A model generated the notes under the pieces. The model saw only the letters and a program-made list of their open reading frames with translations. It did not search any database and was not told the DNA's origin. Positions 5,808 to 54,482 of a DNA stretch of 64,000 nt are shown piece by piece; positions within the stretch are counted from its first letter, which is position 1; each line of letters begins with the position of its first letter. A program made the position numbers and the translations under genes. The DNA is from an uncultured Dehalococcoidaceae bacterium (lineage in GTDB: Bacteria; Chloroflexota; Dehalococcoidia; Dehalococcoidales; RBG-16-60-22): assembly GCA_964615345.1 (NCBI GenBank), contig CAZTMR010000001.1, positions 45,355 through 109,354 of the forward strand, given 5' to 3'.

Positions 5808-5883
5808 TGGCGCGCCCAGAGGGATTCGAACCCCCGACCCCCGGTTCCGAAGACCGGTGCTCTATCCGCTGAGCTATGGGCGC
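5808..5883 (-). tRNA. tRNA-Arg (anticodon TCG), CCA encoded
   Basis: The reverse complement folds by hand into a cloverleaf. The acceptor is GCGCCCA/TGGGCGC, the D arm is TAGCTCAGCGGATAGAGC, the anticodon stem is CCGGT/ACCGG with loop CTTCGGA, and the T arm contains GGTTCGAATCC. Confidence 0.85.
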
Positions 5884-6836: not shown

Positions 6837-6914
6837 TGGGGTGAGTGGAGGGATTTGAACCCTCGATCTCCAGGGCCACAACCTGGCGCCTTAGACCACT
6901 GGGCTACACTCACC
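6837..6914 (-). tRNA. tRNA-His (anticodon GTG) with G-1 and encoded CCA
   Basis: The reverse complement is G-GTGAGTG-TA-GCCC..; the anticodon stem is CCAGG/CCTGG with loop TTGTGGC; the T arm contains GGTTCAAATCC; the 3' end is CACTCAC-C-CCA. Confidence 0.85.
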
Positions 6915-40765: not shown

Positions 40766-40855
40766 TGGCGGAGGGGGTGGGATTCGAACCCACGGTCGTC
40801 TTGCGACGACAACGGTTTTCAAGACCGTCACCATAGACCGCTCGGACACCCCTCC
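40766..40855 (-). tRNA. tRNA-Ser (anticodon TGA), long variable arm, CCA encoded
   Basis: Reverse complement: GGAGGGGTGTCCGAGCGGTCTATGGTGACGGTCTTGAAAACCGTTGTCGTCGCAAGACGACCGTGGGTTCGAATCCCACCCCCTCCGCCA. Confidence 0.85.
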
Positions 40856-49056: not shown

Positions 49057-49097
49057 TAGAAAAGCCAGCTTTACCGTAAGGCTACGGCAAAGCTGGC
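49057..49097 (-). terminator. intrinsic terminator after tubulin-like gene A
   Basis: Minus-strand RNA: GCCAGCUUUGCCG-UAGCCUUA-CGGUAAAGCUGGC-UUUUCU. This is a 13-bp stem (one G-U pair) starting 24 nt after the stop codon, followed by a U tract. Confidence 0.7.
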
Positions 49098-49120
49098 AGG
49101 CGTACCGGTGTTTTCTGCTT

Positions 49121-50293
49121 TTACAGCAGTGAAGGTATATCCTTGGAAGTATCTTCGATAACTCTGAGCTTGGTCTCCGTCTCCTCCTGCCTTCTCTTGA
49201 ACTCCGGGATAAGCCCGGTCGATTTGATATAGTAGCCTCTCACCTTCTCCAGGTCGCTCAGCTCGGAAAGAATGACGGTAACATCCAGCGCGCCCCTTTC
49301 CCGGGGATAATCGCCGTTTCTAATCATCGCTTCAGGAGCAAGGTCCCTCATGTAGTCCCCCAGAGCCTTTGACAGGTCCATATTCATTTCTTTAGACGGC
49401 CCGGAAAGGAGGTAAAGTGCCCTGCGGGCGTCCACCGGGTTGCACTTCAGTGACAACTCGCTGATAGCCTCATCCATGGTCTGGATGCCTTTCAGCGTTT
49501 CATTTCCCTTCTTACGGAAATCACCGCGCTCGCGGGGGAACTTGAACAGGGGGATATCGGAACGGCCGTAACCGATAACCGTCCAGCCTACCAGCGTCTG
49601 GATGATATCCCCGGCGTCAAGTACTTTTGAGGCTATGTACTTGGACTTTTTCTCTTCACCGGCGCAGAGCATATTGTAGAAAGGCTCCGCAATCATGGCA
49701 TTAATCTTGGACAGATTGCCTTTTATCGATGAATCTTTGCGGACGAACCGCTGGTTATCTACCAGGAACACGGCATCGGCTATTGAATAGCATGACTTCA
49801 AACAGGTGGCCGTGTTGTACACGGTGCGGTCCTCTGTGGTCTCCTCATGCTCGAAAGGTAAAACTATGAGGTTATATACTGGCTTATCCGCGTAGCGCTC
49901 TTTGATTTGCTGTGTCATCACGGCTACGGACCCGGAACCGGTGCCGCCGGCGGCACTGGCGATAAGTAAAAAGGCGTCCGTTTCAAAAAATCTCTTTGTG
50001 GTGCGGATGGAATCAATCACCTTATCGGCGTCTTCTCTGGCTATCTCCGCCCCCAGCTCGTTTATTTTCCCCACGCCGTGCCCGCCGGTCTTGCGCCCGC
50101 CGATAAGGATACGGTGCTGGTACCCACGCTGTATGTTGTGTAACCCGCTCAGGTCGGCCGCATCAGTATTTACGGCGTACGCTCCGGTAATAATTTCTAT
50201 CCCACGACGGCTGCGTGCCATTTTGTTTAGCCTGGAAAACTCGTCGGCAATTCTTCCGCCGCACTGCCCAAAACCGACAACTACTAACTTCAT
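49121..50293 (-). CDS. tubulin/FtsZ-superfamily GTPase, CetZ-like core with an FtsZ-like DIPSLL C-terminal peptide (paralog A)
   Basis: 390 aa. T1 loop MKLVVVGFGQCGGRIADEF; GHGVGKINELGAEIARED; T4 signature AAGGTGSGS (residues ~114-122); PVYNLIVLP; FLVDN; T7-like VLDAGDII (~224-231); GDYPRE; C-terminal ..KDIPSLL. Confidence 0.85.
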   Translation of the reverse strand: MKLVVVGFGQCGGRIADEFSRLNKMARSRRGIEIITGAYAVNTDAADLSGLHNIQRGYQHRILIGGRKTGGHGVGKINELGAEIAREDADKVIDSIRTTKRFFETDAFLLIASAAGGTGSGSVAVMTQQIKERYADKPVYNLIVLPFEHEETTEDRTVYNTATCLKSCYSIADAVFLVDNQRFVRKDSSIKGNLSKINAMIAEPFYNMLCAGEEKKSKYIASKVLDAGDIIQTLVGWTVIGYGRSDIPLFKFPRERGDFRKKGNETLKGIQTMDEAISELSLKCNPVDARRALYLLSGPSKEMNMDLSKALGDYMRDLAPEAMIRNGDYPRERGALDVTVILSELSDLEKVRGYYIKSTGLIPEFKRRQEETETKLRVIEDTSKDIPSLL

Positions 50294-50321
50294 TTCTCAC
50301 CTCGGTAGCAGAGTTACGTTC

Positions 50322-50351
50322 ATTGTATGCATAGTACCGGACTATTGTCAA
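50322..50351 (-). promoter_or_regulatory. sigma-70-type promoter candidate for tubulin-like gene A
   Basis: Minus strand has TTGACA (50351-50346), an 18-nt spacer, then TACAAT (50327-50322). GAGGTGA SD lies before ATG 50293. Confidence 0.5.
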
Positions 50352-50377
50352 TCTTTTGTCATCACCCAAAAAAGTTA

Positions 50378-50406
50378 TTGAAAAACGGTTTACCCTATAT
50401 TAAAAT
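50378..50406 (+). promoter_or_regulatory. sigma-70-type promoter candidate for the coiled-coil genes
   Basis: TTGAAA at 50378-50383 and TAAAAT at 50401-50406 with a 17-nt spacer. AAGGGG SD lies before ATG 50427. Confidence 0.45.
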
Positions 50407-50426
50407 TAGGAAACTAAGGGGTAGCA

Positions 50427-52574
50427 ATGGCTAAAGAAACGTCCCGGGACTCCATTATCAATGCGGAAAACAATATCGACGCTTTTGAAAAAGCGGTTGC
50501 CGAGGCAGAAAAACTAAGCCAGGCCGCCAGAAGTGCCGCAGAGGCCTCTACCCGGGCTGCCCAGGAATCTATCAGCCGGGCGGAGGCGATCGGCAAAAAG
50601 GCGAAAAAAGCGGCTGAAAGCTCTGCTGAAGCGGCAAATCAAGCGGTTGAACGCGCCCGCCAGATCTGTAATGAAGCCAGAGTGGCGGCTGAGGAGTCTA
50701 TACGAAAGGCTGAGGAGGCCATAAAGCAGGCGGAGGAATCCGCCCGGGTACCCAAGGAAGCCGCCAGGGGGACCGCCAGAAAGTTCCGGGAAGCGATAGA
50801 GCGTGCTGAAGAGACGAGCCGGGAAGCAATGGAAGCGGCGGAAGCTTCTTTCCTCGCTTCACAGGAAGGGCTGAATCGGGTAGAGGAAATAAGTACTGGC
50901 GCTAAAGAACTGGCTGAATCATCATCCCGGGCGGTGGACGAAGAACTGAAAAAAGCCCAGGAAGCCAGCAGGCTGGCGCGGGAAGTAGCAGAAAGCTCCA
51001 TCAGAGAAGCCAGGCAGGCCTCGGCAAGGGCGGAAAAGGCGAGCCGGGAAGCCCGGGAAGCCGCCGCCGCCGCCGCCAGGGAAGCCCGGGAAGCCGCCAG
51101 CAAAGCGGAAAAGACCGGCCAGGCCACCAGAGAAAACGCGGAAACTTCAGCCAAGGCTACCCGTGAGGTAGCGGAAAAAGCCGAACAGCTCAGCCGGGAA
51201 GCCCGGGAGGTGGCAGAAACCTCTTTAAAGGCCTCTCAGGCTACCACGCAGCGGGTGGAAGAGATAAGCAAGGAAATCAAATCGGTCGCGGCAGCTTCCG
51301 CACAATCGAACCGGCAGGCCGTCAGCAAGATAGAAACATTGAATCGGGACACCAGGCTGGCAGCGGAAGAAGCCTCCAGAGTTGCCCGGGAAGCCGCCGC
51401 TGAATCGACCAGTGCATCACGGGAAGCCATCAGTAAAGTGGAGAGTATCGGCAGTGAAATCAAGACCATGGTCGAGTCAATGGTGAAATCTTTCGGGGAA
51501 GAGATAAGCCAGGTCGAAGCCAAAAGCCAGGAAACGAAAGAGACGGCGGAAGCATCGGTAAAAACGGCACAGGAAGTCTCCGAGGCATCTGTAATCGCTT
51601 CTCAAGAGGCCATAAGCCGGGTGGAAGAAATATGCCAGACCACGCTGCAGACCACCGGAGAATCGGCGAAGTCGGTACAGGAAGCCAGTGACGAAGCGAT
51701 AAAAACCTCCCGGGAAGCGGCGGAAACATCCGTCAGGACGTCTCATGAAGCCATCAGCCAGGCGGAAAAGATAAAGCTGGAATCCAGGGAAAGTGCGGAA
51801 AATCTGTCCCGGTCAGCCATGGAAGCGGTCCAGGGAGCGATAAAAGCGGCGAAAGAAGCCGCGGAAGCCGTTGCCCGGACCTCGCAAGAAGCCATTGAAC
51901 GGGCGGAAGAGATGAACCGGACGACACAGGAAACCGCTGAATCCTCCCGGAAAGCGGTGCGGGAGGCTACCAGACTGGCCATCAAGACCGCCCGGGAAGC
52001 GGCGGAGAACTCGGCAAAAAATTTCGCCGATGCCATAAGCCGGGCGGAAGCCATCGGCAGAGAAACCAGGGAAGCTACCGAGGCTTCGGCCAAAGCGGCC
52101 CGGGAAGCGGCTGAGTCCACGGTAAGGGCGGCTCAGGAAGCCACGGAGGCTGCCGCTCGCGTTGCCAGAGAAGCGGCGGCGGTATCGGTGAAAGCGTTCC
52201 AGGAAGCTATCAGCCGGGCGGAGGCTTCCGGTAAAATGGCGCGGGAAAACGCGGAAGCGTCTCTCAAAGCCTTTGAGAGAGCGGTAAACAAAGATGCGGA
52301 GATTAAAGAAGAGGCTTCCCAGATACTTGAGTTCACGGAGCCGGCGGCGGAAACCAGAGAAGACGCGGCGGAAGACTCGTTGAAGGCCTTTGAAGAGGCC
52401 ATAAACAAAGCTAAAGAGAGCAATGCCGCGGAAAAGAAAAAAGCCAGGCCCTCCAGAGGCAGGGAGAAAATAGAGGCCAGGCTGGATTTTCTCTCCCGTA
52501 TGTATGAGTCAAAGTCAAACGGCGGACCGGAAGAAGACACCGGGAACCAGGATGCTGAAAATGCCCGTAAATAA
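50427..52574 (+). CDS. 715-aa Ala/Glu/Ser/Arg-rich all-helical repeat protein (hendecad-based coiled-coil candidate, CC1)
   Basis: Uninterrupted 715-codon ORF with SD and promoter. There is no signal peptide or TM segment and almost no Pro, Gly or aromatic residues until the last ~45 residues. A recurring (Q/R)EAIS(R/Q)(A/V)E anchor motif is present. The opposite strand carries only fragmented Ala/Ser-rich ORFs. Confidence 0.75.
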   Translation: MAKETSRDSIINAENNIDAFEKAVAEAEKLSQAARSAAEASTRAAQESISRAEAIGKKAKKAAESSAEAANQAVERARQICNEARVAAEESIRKAEEAIKQAEESARVPKEAARGTARKFREAIERAEETSREAMEAAEASFLASQEGLNRVEEISTGAKELAESSSRAVDEELKKAQEASRLAREVAESSIREARQASARAEKASREAREAAAAAAREAREAASKAEKTGQATRENAETSAKATREVAEKAEQLSREAREVAETSLKASQATTQRVEEISKEIKSVAAASAQSNRQAVSKIETLNRDTRLAAEEASRVAREAAAESTSASREAISKVESIGSEIKTMVESMVKSFGEEISQVEAKSQETKETAEASVKTAQEVSEASVIASQEAISRVEEICQTTLQTTGESAKSVQEASDEAIKTSREAAETSVRTSHEAISQAEKIKLESRESAENLSRSAMEAVQGAIKAAKEAAEAVARTSQEAIERAEEMNRTTQETAESSRKAVREATRLAIKTAREAAENSAKNFADAISRAEAIGRETREATEASAKAAREAAESTVRAAQEATEAAARVAREAAAVSVKAFQEAISRAEASGKMARENAEASLKAFERAVNKDAEIKEEASQILEFTEPAAETREDAAEDSLKAFEEAINKAKESNAAEKKKARPSRGREKIEARLDFLSRMYESKSNGGPEEDTGNQDAENARK
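50559..52286 (+). repeat. degenerate in-frame tandem repeats (11-residue modules plus 14-residue spacers; best copies have a 47-aa / 141-bp period)
   Basis: Anchor-motif spacings counted by hand are 25, 36, 47, 47, 47 and 58 residues (14 + 11n) between residues ~249 and 595. The more degenerate N-terminal copies are spaced 32 and 43 residues (21 + 11n). Confidence 0.7.
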
Positions 52575-52647
52575 GGTATCATTGACCTTGAAACGGTCTT
52601 CAGATAAACACAGTAAATAATGCAGACAATCGTTTAGGAGGTAGTCG

Positions 52648-53178
52648 ATGGCCGAGCCGAAGGGAGCTAAAAAAGTCAGCGAAGAGCCTGTGGAGGAGAT
52701 TGTGGAAGAGACAACTGCGGCGCAGGAAGAAGCTCTGGAACCGCCGGAACCGGCGGTAGAAGAAGAAACTACGGACACAAGGCCGCTCGATGAAGTCCTG
52801 GGACAGGCGGAAAAAGCTTACGCCGCTTACATGGAAGCACAGCGCCAGGTAGCCAACGCGTACCGGGGAAACGAGCAACAGATAGCCCGGGCATACCGTC
52901 GGGCGGAGCAGCAGGCGGAAAGCGCCTGCGAGGCGAGCATCAACGAAGCCATAAAGGCCCGGGAAGAGACCATTAACCAGGCGCTGAAAGAACGCGATGA
53001 CGCTATCACCCAGGTGGAAAAGGCCTACCGGAAGACGAAAGAACAGGCGGAAAAAACCTGCGAAGCTGAAATTGATAAAGCCTGGAAAGCGAGAGAGCAC
53101 GCCGTCGAGCAGGCCTGGCAGCTGCGCGAGGAAACTCTCGAGCAGGCCTGGAACATCTACGCCAAGCTGTCAAGATAA
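52648..53178 (+). CDS. 176-aa protein: acidic Glu/Pro-rich N-terminus plus an uninterrupted hendecad coiled-coil (CC2)
   Basis: Strong SD (TAGGAGGT) 5 nt before the ATG. Residues 55-175 parse into 11 consecutive 11-mers. It lies 73 nt downstream of CC1 with no obvious terminator between them. Confidence 0.65.
   Translation: MAEPKGAKKVSEEPVEEIVEETTAAQEEALEPPEPAVEEETTDTRPLDEVLGQAEKAYAAYMEAQRQVANAYRGNEQQIARAYRRAEQQAESACEASINEAIKAREETINQALKERDDAITQVEKAYRKTKEQAEKTCEAEIDKAWKAREHAVEQAWQLREETLEQAWNIYAKLSR
52810..53172 (+). repeat. eleven consecutive 11-residue (33-bp) protein repeats
   Basis: EKAYAAYMEAQ/RQVANAYRGNE/QQIARAYRRAE/QQAESACEASI/NEAIKAREETI/NQALKERDDAI/TQVEKAYRKTK/EQAEKTCEAEI/DKAWKAREHAV/EQAWQLREETL/EQAWNIYAKLS. 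Confidence 0.7.
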
Positions 53179-53248
53179 GTAAGAGATCCCCGGCAGGTTG
53201 AAACGGGAGGAATTACCGTCCTTTTCGTCTCTCGGGTGGTATCGGGTG

Positions 53249-54424
53249 CTATAATAGGGAAGGGATATCTTTAAGGGTAACTTCTATGCCGCGGGTCTGG
53301 CTCTCTATCCCTTCCTGTCTCTTCTTTAGAGTGGAGATAAGATTGATCGCCTTGGTGAAGTAACCCCGTATTTTGGCCACGTCACTGAGCTCGGAAAGAA
53401 TTACCGTAACCTCCAGAGCTCCCCCCTCCCGGGGATAATCGCCGCTCCTGATTACCGCTTCCGGGGTCAGGCTCTTCAGGTAGGTGCCCAGTTCCTTGAT
53501 CAGATCAACGTTCACTTCTTTGGCCGGCGCGGAAACCAGGTATAAAGCCCGCTTTGAGTCCACCGGGTTACACTTCAGGGAGAGCCCGCTTATCGCCTGG
53601 TCCATGGTCTGGGTCCCTTTCTGCGTTTCCGTGGCCTTGTTCCGGAAGTCCCGCGTCCGCTTGAAAAGCCCCCGGGTAAAGGAAAGGTTTGACCTGCCGT
53701 AGCCGATAGTCGTCCAGCCGGAAACGGTCTGGATAATGTCGCCGGCATCAAGTATCTTGGCGCCGATGTGCTTGTGCTTTTTCTCCTCCCCGGCGCAGAG
53801 CAAGTTATAAAAAGGCTCGGTAATGGTGGTGTTGATGCGGGAGAGATTGCTGCGTATGGGGGAATCTTTCATCACGTACCGCTGGTTGTCTACCAGAAAC
53901 ACCGCGTCCGCCACCAGATAAGAAGATTTAAGGCAGGTGGCCACGTTATACACCGTTCTTTCTTCGGTCGATTCTTCGTGTTCAAACGGAAGTACAATGA
54001 GATTGTATACCGGCTTGTCCACGTAGCGTTCTTTAATGTGCTGGGTGATTACCGGCACCGAACCGGACCCGGTGCCGCCGGCGGCGCCGGCAATGAGCAG
54101 GAAGGCGTCCGCTTCAGTAAAGCGGCGGCTCGTCCGGATAATCTCAATGACCTTGTCACCGTCTTCTTTGGCTATCTCCGCGCCCAACTCGTTTATCTTC
54201 CCCACGCCGTGACCGCCGGTCTTGCGCCCGCCAATCAGGATACGGTGTTGATAGTCCGGCCTTATGCCGGTCAGACCGCTCAGGTCGGCCACGTCTGTAT
54301 TTACGGCAAAAGCTCCGGCGATGATGTCAATCCCGCGCTGGCCGCGCGCTTTCCTATTCAACCGGGCAAACTCATCGGCGATTCTTCCGCCGCACTGCCC
54401 GAAACCAACTACCACAATTTTCAT
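53249..54424 (-). CDS. tubulin/FtsZ-superfamily GTPase, CetZ-like core with an FtsZ-like DIPSLL C-terminal peptide (paralog B)
   Basis: 391 aa, colinear with paralog A. MKIVVVGFGQCGGRIADEF; GHGVGKINELGAEIAKED; GAAGGTGSGS; PVYNLIVLP; FLVDN; ILDAGDII; GDYPRE; ..KDIPSLL. Confidence 0.85.
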   Translation of the reverse strand: MKIVVVGFGQCGGRIADEFARLNRKARGQRGIDIIAGAFAVNTDVADLSGLTGIRPDYQHRILIGGRKTGGHGVGKINELGAEIAKEDGDKVIEIIRTSRRFTEADAFLLIAGAAGGTGSGSVPVITQHIKERYVDKPVYNLIVLPFEHEESTEERTVYNVATCLKSSYLVADAVFLVDNQRYVMKDSPIRSNLSRINTTITEPFYNLLCAGEEKKHKHIGAKILDAGDIIQTVSGWTTIGYGRSNLSFTRGLFKRTRDFRNKATETQKGTQTMDQAISGLSLKCNPVDSKRALYLVSAPAKEVNVDLIKELGTYLKSLTPEAVIRSGDYPREGGALEVTVILSELSDVAKIRGYFTKAINLISTLKKRQEGIESQTRGIEVTLKDIPSLL

Positions 54425-54452
54425 CTTTTATCCTGTTAGCGGAATTTATGCT

Positions 54453-54482
54453 ATTTTAGGCATTATGCTAACGTGATGTCAA
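54453..54482 (-). promoter_or_regulatory. sigma-70-type promoter candidate for tubulin-like gene B
   Basis: Minus strand has TTGACA (54482-54477), an 18-nt spacer, then TAAAAT (54458-54453). This is the same geometry as the promoter of paralog A. Confidence 0.5.

Follow-up and report, generated by a model that had tools for sequence, protein, structure and literature searches.

A CetZ-like GTPase pair with two linked coiled-coil genes: a candidate cytoskeletal module of the Dehalococcoidales

CetZ proteins are treated as an archaea-specific branch of the tubulin superfamily, and even in Haloferax little is known of how they work or with which partners. What, then, are two CetZ-like genes doing on either side of two coiled-coil genes in the chromosome of a bacterium? 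The arrangement occupies positions 49,057 to 54,482 of a 64,000-nucleotide stretch of DNA from an uncultured Dehalococcoidaceae bacterium (contig CAZTMR010000001.1; the whole stretch is hereafter called the window). The four genes encode two paralogous GTPases, here named A and B, and two repetitive helical proteins, CC1 and CC2, which a prediction made from the nucleotide sequence (the original prediction) had combined into a candidate undescribed bacterial cytoskeletal system. We followed up this prediction with profile, structural, phylogenetic, and gene neighborhood comparisons and, on balance, lean toward reading the locus as a chromosomal CetZ-type cytoskeletal module of the Dehalococcoidales that serves cell shape or the envelope and works with dedicated fibrous partners.

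GTPases A and B and the CetZ branch

Both GTPases matched the Pfam families Tubulin (PF00091; 110.2 bits for A and 110.9 bits for B against a cut-off of 33; E = 1e-31) and CetZ_C (PF21011; 56.9 and 74.2 bits against a cut-off of 21.6; E = 2e-15 and 1e-20, respectively), the latter domain being precomputed for all 120 closest homologs. The NCBIfam equivalog model of FtsZ (TIGR00065), by contrast, aligned only with the N-terminal 200 residues, and its scores, 51.1 and 61 bits, lie far below the cut-off of 295.2; neither protein matched Pfam FtsZ_C or Tubulin_C (PF03953), and Tubulin_2 (PF13809) remained below its threshold (18.8 and 13.2 bits against 27). In a phmmer search of the PDB sequences, the best matches were the CetZ1 structure 4b46 (1.9e-43, residues 1 to 384), the CetZ2 structure 4b45 (1.3e-26), and 3zid (5.6e-15), whereas FtsZs and tubulins reached only 1e-8 to 1e-4 (best FtsZ or tubulin approximately 3e-8; tubulins 1e-6 to 1e-4). 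The same 3 structures, in the order 4b46, 3zid, and 4b45, occupied Foldseek ranks 1 to 3 for an AlphaFold model of A, with approximately 34% identity to CetZ1, a ranking that we take as weak corroboration only, because the model is poor (predicted local distance difference test [pLDDT] 53) and the underlying multiple sequence alignment shallow (at least 78% identity). The profile hidden Markov model comparison that the original prediction had called for thus places A and B where it had expected them, among CetZ-like members of the tubulin superfamily and apart from duplicates of the canonical division FtsZ.

Full-length alignment of A with B gives 72% identity (84% similarity), close to the roughly 70% identity estimated by eye, and the motifs GFGQCGG (T1), AGGTGSG (T4), and LDAGD (T7) that had been singled out are present in both. 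In the family alignment, GGTGSG is aligned with CetZ1 residues 109 to 114 and is conserved in both paralogs, and D226/D229 are aligned with D215/E218 of CetZ1 and D209/D212 of Escherichia coli FtsZ; E218 is what we take to be the residue mutated in GTPase-defective CetZ1. The T4 and T7 residues are invariant in a 37-sequence alignment (A4). Both proteins keep the T7 acids and, therefore, neither is a catalytically dead partner such as occurs in the alpha/beta-tubulin pair; because all GTP-binding and T7 catalytic residues are retained, each should form GTP-dependent protofilaments. T1 reads GQCGG in both paralogs (residues 9 to 12), with C10 invariant throughout A4; tubulin has a Cys here too, whereas archaeal CetZ, CetZ1 included, carries Ala (GQAGG). 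Like members of the CetZ1 subfamily, A and B have a long M-loop, which combines basic with hydrophobic residues (DIPLFKFPRERGDFRKK in A). Only 6 positions are fixed differently between the A and B clades, and the ratio of nonsynonymous to synonymous substitution rates (dN/dS) against the 2 nearest relatives is 0.03 to 0.05 for both genes, at saturated dS.

The nearest proteins (78% to 92% identical) come from metagenome-assembled genomes (MAGs) of Dehalococcoidales and Chloroflexota, where their annotations read “tubulin/FtsZ family protein,” “cell division GTPase FtsZ,” and, once, “Tubulin-like protein CetZ.” All 79 genome loci retrieved with A belong to MAGs of Dehalococcoidales or Dehalococcoidia, save a few evidently mislabeled bins, and relatives down to approximately 42% identity that carry a name are likewise from Dehalococcoidia. 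HMMER, run exhaustively against 1.84 billion cluster representatives, yielded only 787 matches at E ≤ 1e-3. One of the relatives, P0161 (35% identical), is archaeal, because it sits among aIF2-gamma, S6e, and aIF5B-type genes. We built a neighbor-joining/BLOSUM tree of 204 sequences, which carries no support values, leaves out Thermococcales, holds mostly representatives of unassigned taxonomy, and has a single E. coli FtsZ as its only outgroup. In this tree, the A-type (79 sequences) and B-type (56 sequences) proteins are each monophyletic and sister to each other, and both lie within a clade in which every member that carries a name or was checked by gene context comes from Dehalococcoidia. 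This clade, at least 40% identical internally and approximately 30% to 35% identical to archaeal CetZs, adjoins an archaeal clade that holds CetZ1, CetZ2, and P0161. The comparisons directly support two conclusions, namely, that A and B either belong to the CetZ branch as bacterial members or stand next to it as close sisters and that the duplication separating them is older than the sampled species; both “member” and “sister” stand, because the tree has no support values. The host, in any case, is not an archaeon: the flanking genes (dnaX, ybaB, recR, and recO) are bacterial and the relatives are Dehalococcoidales MAGs. The boundary of the CetZ branch has been placed at the CetZ of Thermococcales (Brown and Duggin 2023), and CetZ-like proteins of Chloroflexota-Dehalococcoidia have been mentioned in passing and termed “CetZ-like” (Santana-Molina et al. 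2023, PMC9871819).

Two further observations concern paralogs elsewhere in this clade. The MAG CAYVOV01 carries 3 A-type paralogs on 3 contigs (L059, L065, and L070), with no coiled-coil gene within 8 kb. P0272, a 54%-identical CetZ-like paralog from Dehalococcoidia whose cluster has 269 members, is convergent with a conserved 457-aa gene that matches the Pfam family Terminase_6C in 3 independent contigs (L080, 842-3623; L081, 2264-4996; L082, 710-3434), none of which has coiled-coil genes there.

A and B end in K-D-I-P-S-L-L, a C-terminus that is nearly invariant in both of their clades and occurs across more distant clade members in recognizable variants such as KDLPSLE, KDIPTLL, EVPSLL, DLPSLL, and GLPSLL. 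A tail of the form D/E-[ILV]-P-x-L-L is kept across the bacterial clade but not in Haloferax CetZ1, the tail of which is acidic. That of FtsZ is DYLDIPAFLRKQAD, with I374 and L378 critical for ZipA, FtsA, and MinC (PMC4117426); FtsZ tails are also given as DIPAFLR (PMC4117426) and, in Bacillus subtilis, DIPTFLR (bioRxiv 10.1101/459685). Set against the FtsZ anchor peptide D-[IL]-P-x-F-L, A and B share the D, the I, the P, and the final L, which amounts to a resemblance only. Given that Dehalococcoidia CetZ-like paralogs lacking coiled-coil neighbors keep the tail as well, its receptor is probably a general anchor of the FtsA/SepF type, not CC1 or CC2.

Linkage and properties of the coiled-coil genes

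Linkage was scored from both sides. Among the 79 species-level loci fetched with A, the arrangement gap-B-CC2-CC1-A-dnaX recurs in the same order and orientation in 53 and B-CC1-A without CC2 in 4 more; a contig end cuts 8 of the loci, with CC1 beside A. Reciprocally, of 80 metagenome loci retrieved by a CC2 profile, 78 had room for an adjacent GTPase gene, and 75 of these carry a convergent B-type GTPase next door; CC1 lies upstream of CC2 in 60 of 66. The neighborhood analysis of relatives that had been proposed thus finds the GTPase pair and the coiled-coil genes recurring together, and the predicted linkage holds from the A side as well as from the CC2 side. Three lineages (L017, a close relative, and the deeper L066 and L068) have gap-A-dnaX without B, CC2, and CC1. 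The sister of L017, L015, has the full module. Recombination between A and B was considered as the cause of the L017 deletion and rejected, the L017 GTPase being nonchimeric; because it is A-type over its whole length, we regard L017 as a clean joint loss. The linkage of B and CC1 (with or without CC2) to A is strong and specific, the GTPase family is independent of these partners, and in some lineages it has expanded independently of CC1 and CC2.

The locus is rearranged in L069 (2574-7468), where one strand carries an A-type and a B-type gene in tandem, after which come CC2 and CC1 on the opposite strand. CC2 paralogs in L142 (6854-7396) and L155 (4063-4584) lie among small ORFs (open reading frames) of helix-turn-helix/XRE-like type with no GTPase; these 2 loci are the only clear exceptions to CC2-GTPase adjacency among the 80 metagenome loci.

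CC1 consists of 23% A, 18% E, and 11% S, with 4 Pro and 15 Gly. Residues 21 to 320 form approximately 12 in-register units of 25 residues (7+7+11; period 3.57), whereas the second half is built of 47-residue units, corresponding to four 141-nucleotide repeats in the DNA (period 3.60 to 3.63). Its autocorrelation is dominated by lag 25, followed by 36, 50, and 75, and the overall hydrophobic period is 3.59 (power 449 against a shuffle maximum of 95). Single-sequence AlphaFold prediction yielded a near-wholly helical model (pLDDT 67) with breaks at the conserved P109 and at glycines near positions 230, 411, 544, and 602; a fold search with this model gave no meaningful match. Orthologs range from 520 to 911 aa, with a conserved N-terminal third (residues ~20 to 180) and an invariant C-terminal motif, R-L-[DE]-[FM]-L-[SA]-[RK]-M-Y-E (685 to 694), and the number of repeats varies between species. 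No signal peptide or transmembrane segment is evident from the sequence.

CC2 has an acidic, Pro-containing head of 45 residues followed by 11 hendecads in perfect register. Identity autocorrelation peaks at lags 11, 22, 33, 44, and 55, hydrophobic residues recur with a period of 3.66 (power 145; at most 92 in shuffles), and a stripe of Tyr, Trp, and Cys occupies the last position of each hendecad row, every 11 residues. The overall periods of CC1 and CC2 both fall in the range of 3.5 to 3.67 residues that marks coiled-coil fibrous proteins in general. Conserved blocks span residues 46 to 90 and 156 to 173, and orthologs are 159 to 193 residues long. The 11-residue arithmetic that the original prediction had ascribed to both proteins is, therefore, seen in CC2 (lags 11 to 55) but not in CC1, with its 25- and 47-residue units; its description of both as Ala/Glu-rich and poor in Pro and Gly was accurate, the Pro and Gly of CC2 being confined to residues 1 to 74. 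At dN/dS values of 0.08 to 0.10 against the 2 nearest relatives, again at saturated dS, CC1 and CC2 are real genes under purifying selection, and the data directly support their description as lineage-specific, cytoplasmic fibrous proteins. Neither belongs to ZapA, ZapB, EzrA, SepF, TubR, TubY, or BtubC by Pfam, NCBIfam, and PDB profiles, and PDB profile searches with the CC1 and CC2 alignments returned compositional matches only, to designed bundles, coiled coils of methyl-accepting chemotaxis proteins, and apolipophorin-III. A word-indexed homolog search found 4 matches for CC2 and 1 for CC1 and was dropped, because it is too insensitive for low-complexity coiled coils; orthologs were identified by tblastn on the fetched loci instead.

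The ORF coordinates agree with the original prediction, which had the genes in the order A(−), CC1(+), CC2(+), B(−), and a consensus scan recovered both the promoter candidates of the locus and the strong terminator after A that it had noted. The features of the locus, in window coordinates, are as follows:

49064..49097, minus strand: terminator-like hairpin 3' of A (15-bp stem with 8 GC pairs, T-rich tail)
49121..50293, minus strand: GTPase A, CetZ-like, 390 aa (ORF, Pfam)
50322..50351, minus strand: promoter-like site of A, TTGACA-18-TACAAT, 11/12 (consensus scan)
50378..50406, plus strand: promoter-like site of CC1, TTGAAA-17-TAAAAT, 10/12, back to back with the A promoter (consensus scan)
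50427..52574, plus strand: CC1, 715 aa, fibrous and all-helical (ORF)
52636..52641, plus strand: ribosome-binding site of CC2, AGGAGG
52648..53178, plus strand: CC2, 176 aa, hendecads (ORF)
53249..54424, minus strand: GTPase B, CetZ-like paralog of A, 391 aa (ORF, Pfam)
54453..54482, minus strand: promoter-like site of B, TTGACA-18-TAAAAT, 11/12 (consensus scan)

The scan found 8 promoter-like sites, against 2.6 ± 2.0 in shuffled sequences. A and CC1 diverge from a 133-bp spacer, and when 49 orthologous A-CC1 spacers are aligned, the conserved islands are both divergent, sigma-70-like −35/−10 pairs and the Shine-Dalgarno sequence of A. CC2 is probably cotranscribed with CC1, since the 73-bp spacer between them has no convincing separate CC2 promoter. 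CC2 and B converge on a gap of 70 bp; a terminator there was considered and rejected, the fold being no better than in shuffles (z = −0.45). In one relative (L012, 7478-8000), the A-CC1 spacer has grown to 523 nucleotides by an insert of GC-rich inverted repeats, e.g., CCTCTCCCCTTCAAAAGGGGAGAGGG, which resembles a small repeat element. Minus-strand ORFs of 89 to 171 aa overlap CC1 (window positions 50639 to 52582) and look like by-products of its GC-rich Ala/Glu/Arg codon repeats, not genes.

As had been described, the block lies between core genes: Pfam identifies lysS, recO, recR, ybaB, and dnaX to one side of it, with gap, eno, and a SLOG-family gene beyond its other end. Repeated sequence around it is limited to the A/B paralogy and to the units inside CC1; no mobile-element repeats flank it and no integrase or transposase gene lies beside it, which bears out the predicted absence of such elements. 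Its GC content, 54% to 56%, is slightly under the surrounding 57% to 59%. Rfam and ARAGORN matches in the window are restricted to 3 tRNAs, Arg-TCG (5808-5883), His-GTG (6837-6913), and Ser-TGA (40766-40855), with no riboswitch or other Rfam family near the module.

A proposed shape or envelope role and its alternatives

Cultured Dehalococcoides are not known to have peptidoglycan. Their cells are disc-shaped (PMC4644273, PMC8163811) and bear an S-layer (PMC5102406), and in Haloferax CetZ1 controls rod/disc morphogenesis through GTP-dependent polymers (bioRxiv 10.1101/2024.04.08.588506; PMC9856176). In Dehalococcoides mccartyi BTF08, a tubulin/FtsZ GTPase (btf_0551) and btf_0548, a hypothetical protein encoded nearby, are reported as coregulated in proteomes, abundant in disc-shaped cells of the pure culture and low or undetected in barrel-shaped cells of a co-culture (PMC8163811). 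In the mechanism that we propose, A and B would assemble into GTP-dependent filaments, as homopolymers or mixed polymers, which the KDIPSLL tail, and possibly also the M-loop, would anchor to the membrane or an adaptor. CC1 may serve as a filament-associated scaffold, cross-linker, or spacer, as its length, its length variability, and its conserved ends suggest, and CC2 as a ZapB-like accessory, since it is small and dispensable in one subclade. By analogy with CetZ1 in Haloferax, the output would be control of cell shape or of envelope organization.

A number of observations weigh against this proposal. The tie of CC1 and CC2 to A and B is genetic, and both coiled-coil proteins match no Pfam, NCBIfam, PADLOC, or PHROG family above noise and have no detectable homology to known filament-binding proteins. 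CC2 is missing in 4 species and lies away from GTPases in 2 to 3 metagenome loci; A-type genes without coiled-coil genes within 8 kb occur in L017, L066, L068, L052, L055, L059, L063, L065, L070, L072, and L073, for which reason the GTPase does not need CC1 or CC2 in cis, and more distant Dehalococcoidia paralogs have unrelated neighbors. The role in shape is extrapolated from an archaeal case and from a single proteomic correlation in a different genus, where btf_0548-0551 and DET0586-0589 are candidate counterparts of the module that provide a lead only. Finally, ftsZ and ftsA were not found in the 64-kb window, which is silent on morphology and on the wall.

As an alternative, A and B could be division accessories that join or replace FtsZ in wall-less cytokinesis, with the tail docking on FtsA or SepF and CC1 and CC2 as Zap- or EzrA-like organizers, an explanation that we consider unlikely. 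The tail does share D, I, P, and the last L with the anchor-binding peptide of FtsZ (PMC4117426), but the proteins behind it are of the CetZ type, not the FtsZ type, and the CetZs characterized so far are not division proteins (PMC9856176). Source annotations read “cell division GTPase FtsZ,” yet the locus has no linkage to ftsA or to the division and cell wall (dcw) cluster, and neither CC1 nor CC2 falls into a Zap, EzrA, or SepF family. D. mccartyi has two further “FtsZ” genes, DET0589 and DET0636, which networks tie to growth and division transcripts, although alongside a canonical FtsZ-FtsA pair, DET0343/DET0342 (PMC5102406); the authors of the BTF08 study read the barrel-shaped cells with little tubulin-like protein as delayed in division (PMC8163811).

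Quite unlikely, in our view, is that the neighbors are functionally unrelated, with CC1 and CC2 as amphipathic helices that protect membranes or the stressed cell (similar to LEA proteins, apolipoproteins, or PspA) and the linkage a product of shared regulation or inherited synteny. Their composition and periodicity are those of repeat amphipathic-helix proteins, and apolipophorin-III is among their PDB profile matches; however, they match no LEA, PspA, or phasin family in Pfam. Synteny alone is weak evidence for a functional tie, because the flanking genes are equally syntenic across species, but 3 lineages that retain A, gap, and dnaX jointly lack B, CC2, and CC1, a CC2 homolog hardly ever occurs apart from a GTPase, and the back-to-back arrangement of the divergent A and CC1 promoters is conserved. 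In D. mccartyi 195, the operon DET0586-0588, beside the “FtsZ” gene DET0589, marks solvent toxicity at saturating tetrachloroethene (PCE) (PMC4340931, PMC5102406), but these genes are only candidate orthologs of CC1 and CC2. Tubulin-superfamily GTPases with small adjacent genes also bring to mind a domesticated DNA-segregation system of a mobile element of the TubZ/PhuZ type, a reading to which the sub-threshold Tubulin_2 match of A (18.8 bits against 27) and a weak match to a PHROG of unknown function could be added. It is effectively refuted by the presence of CetZ_C, the position between dnaX and gap that is fixed across dozens of species, a GC content only slightly under that of the neighboring DNA, and the lack of a TubR-like DNA-binding gene, centromere-like repeats, an integrase, or phage genes. 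Readings of the locus as a defense system or a phage were likewise rejected, PADLOC and PHROGs having returned nothing above noise for the module apart from that weak PHROG match.

Within the cytoskeletal reading, a more specific scenario, which as a whole we think improbable, is that a CetZ acquired from Euryarchaeota was rewired through the DIPSLL tail onto FtsZ anchors, duplicated, and joined by CC1 and CC2, and that the resulting cortical or marginal filaments set the disc shape of wall-less, S-layer-bearing cells. If true, this would be a bacterial cell-shape cytoskeleton in which a tubulin homolog takes the place of MreB and peptidoglycan.

Relation to known systems and significance

BtubA/BtubB of Prosthecobacter, with BtubC, are likewise 2 tubulin-superfamily paralogs with a helical-repeat accessory gene in one bacterial locus, and a foreign origin is likely for both systems. 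They are, however, true tubulins with Tubulin_C, obligate heterodimers encoded in an operon, whereas A and B are of the CetZ type, are both catalytically complete, and bracket their partners. Like crescentin, FilP/Scy, and Ccrp, CC1 is a long helical protein with little Pro or Gly and with repeats that do not follow heptad arithmetic; Scy has a 51-residue repeat, against units of 25 and 47 in CC1. Those proteins have no sequence homology to CC1 and are not known to be genetically paired with a tubulin homolog. Bacterial FtsZ, with FtsA, ZipA, SepF, ZapA/ZapB, and EzrA, follows a similar logic of polymerizing GTPase, docking peptide (DIPxFL against DIPSLL), and coiled-coil partners, but A and B fail the FtsZ equivalog, are devoid of FtsZ_C, and lie outside dcw, and CC1 and CC2 show no detectable homology to Zap, EzrA, or SepF proteins.

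The archaeal CetZs (Haloferax volcanii CetZ1 and CetZ2, 4b46 and 4b45; Methanosaeta, 3zid) have the same Tubulin plus CetZ_C architecture, T1, T4, and T7 motifs, and long M-loop. As here, they occur as several paralogs per genome, and cultured relatives of our host are bounded by an S-layer, as are the archaeal hosts. They differ in having GQAGG and an acidic tail, whereas A and B have GQCGG and DIPSLL, a bacterial host, and a clade of their own. The module includes two dedicated coiled-coil genes, whereas CetZ and CetZ-like genes occur in unrelated contexts according to published analysis (PMC9871819). The same paper describes the archaeal Halo.Tub and Asg.Tub as divergent tubulin-like genes that also have coiled-coil neighbors and quasi-tandem paralogs; these are unrelated in sequence, and their contexts are not conserved between groups (Santana-Molina 2023), whereas that of the module is kept in at least 57 species.

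The four-gene module, the two orphan coiled-coil families, and the FtsZ-type tail appear in no paper that we found in the searchable library. The term “undescribed” used in the original prediction can accordingly be kept for the module and the coiled-coil partners but not for the GTPases, which are already known to exist, being mentioned in passing, as uncharacterized proteins, in one phylogenetic paper (PMC9871819). Through their conserved association with A and B, CC1 and CC2 would be the first candidate CetZ-associated proteins, and A and B offer a natural example of a tubulin-superfamily protein with an FtsZ-type docking peptide. All 4 proteins are small, soluble, and expressible, so that polymerization and binding assays are directly feasible. 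For the peptidoglycan-free Dehalococcoidia, including Dehalococcoides and Dehalogenimonas of bioremediation, the module provides a hypothesis of how the shape or the envelope of the cell may be organized.

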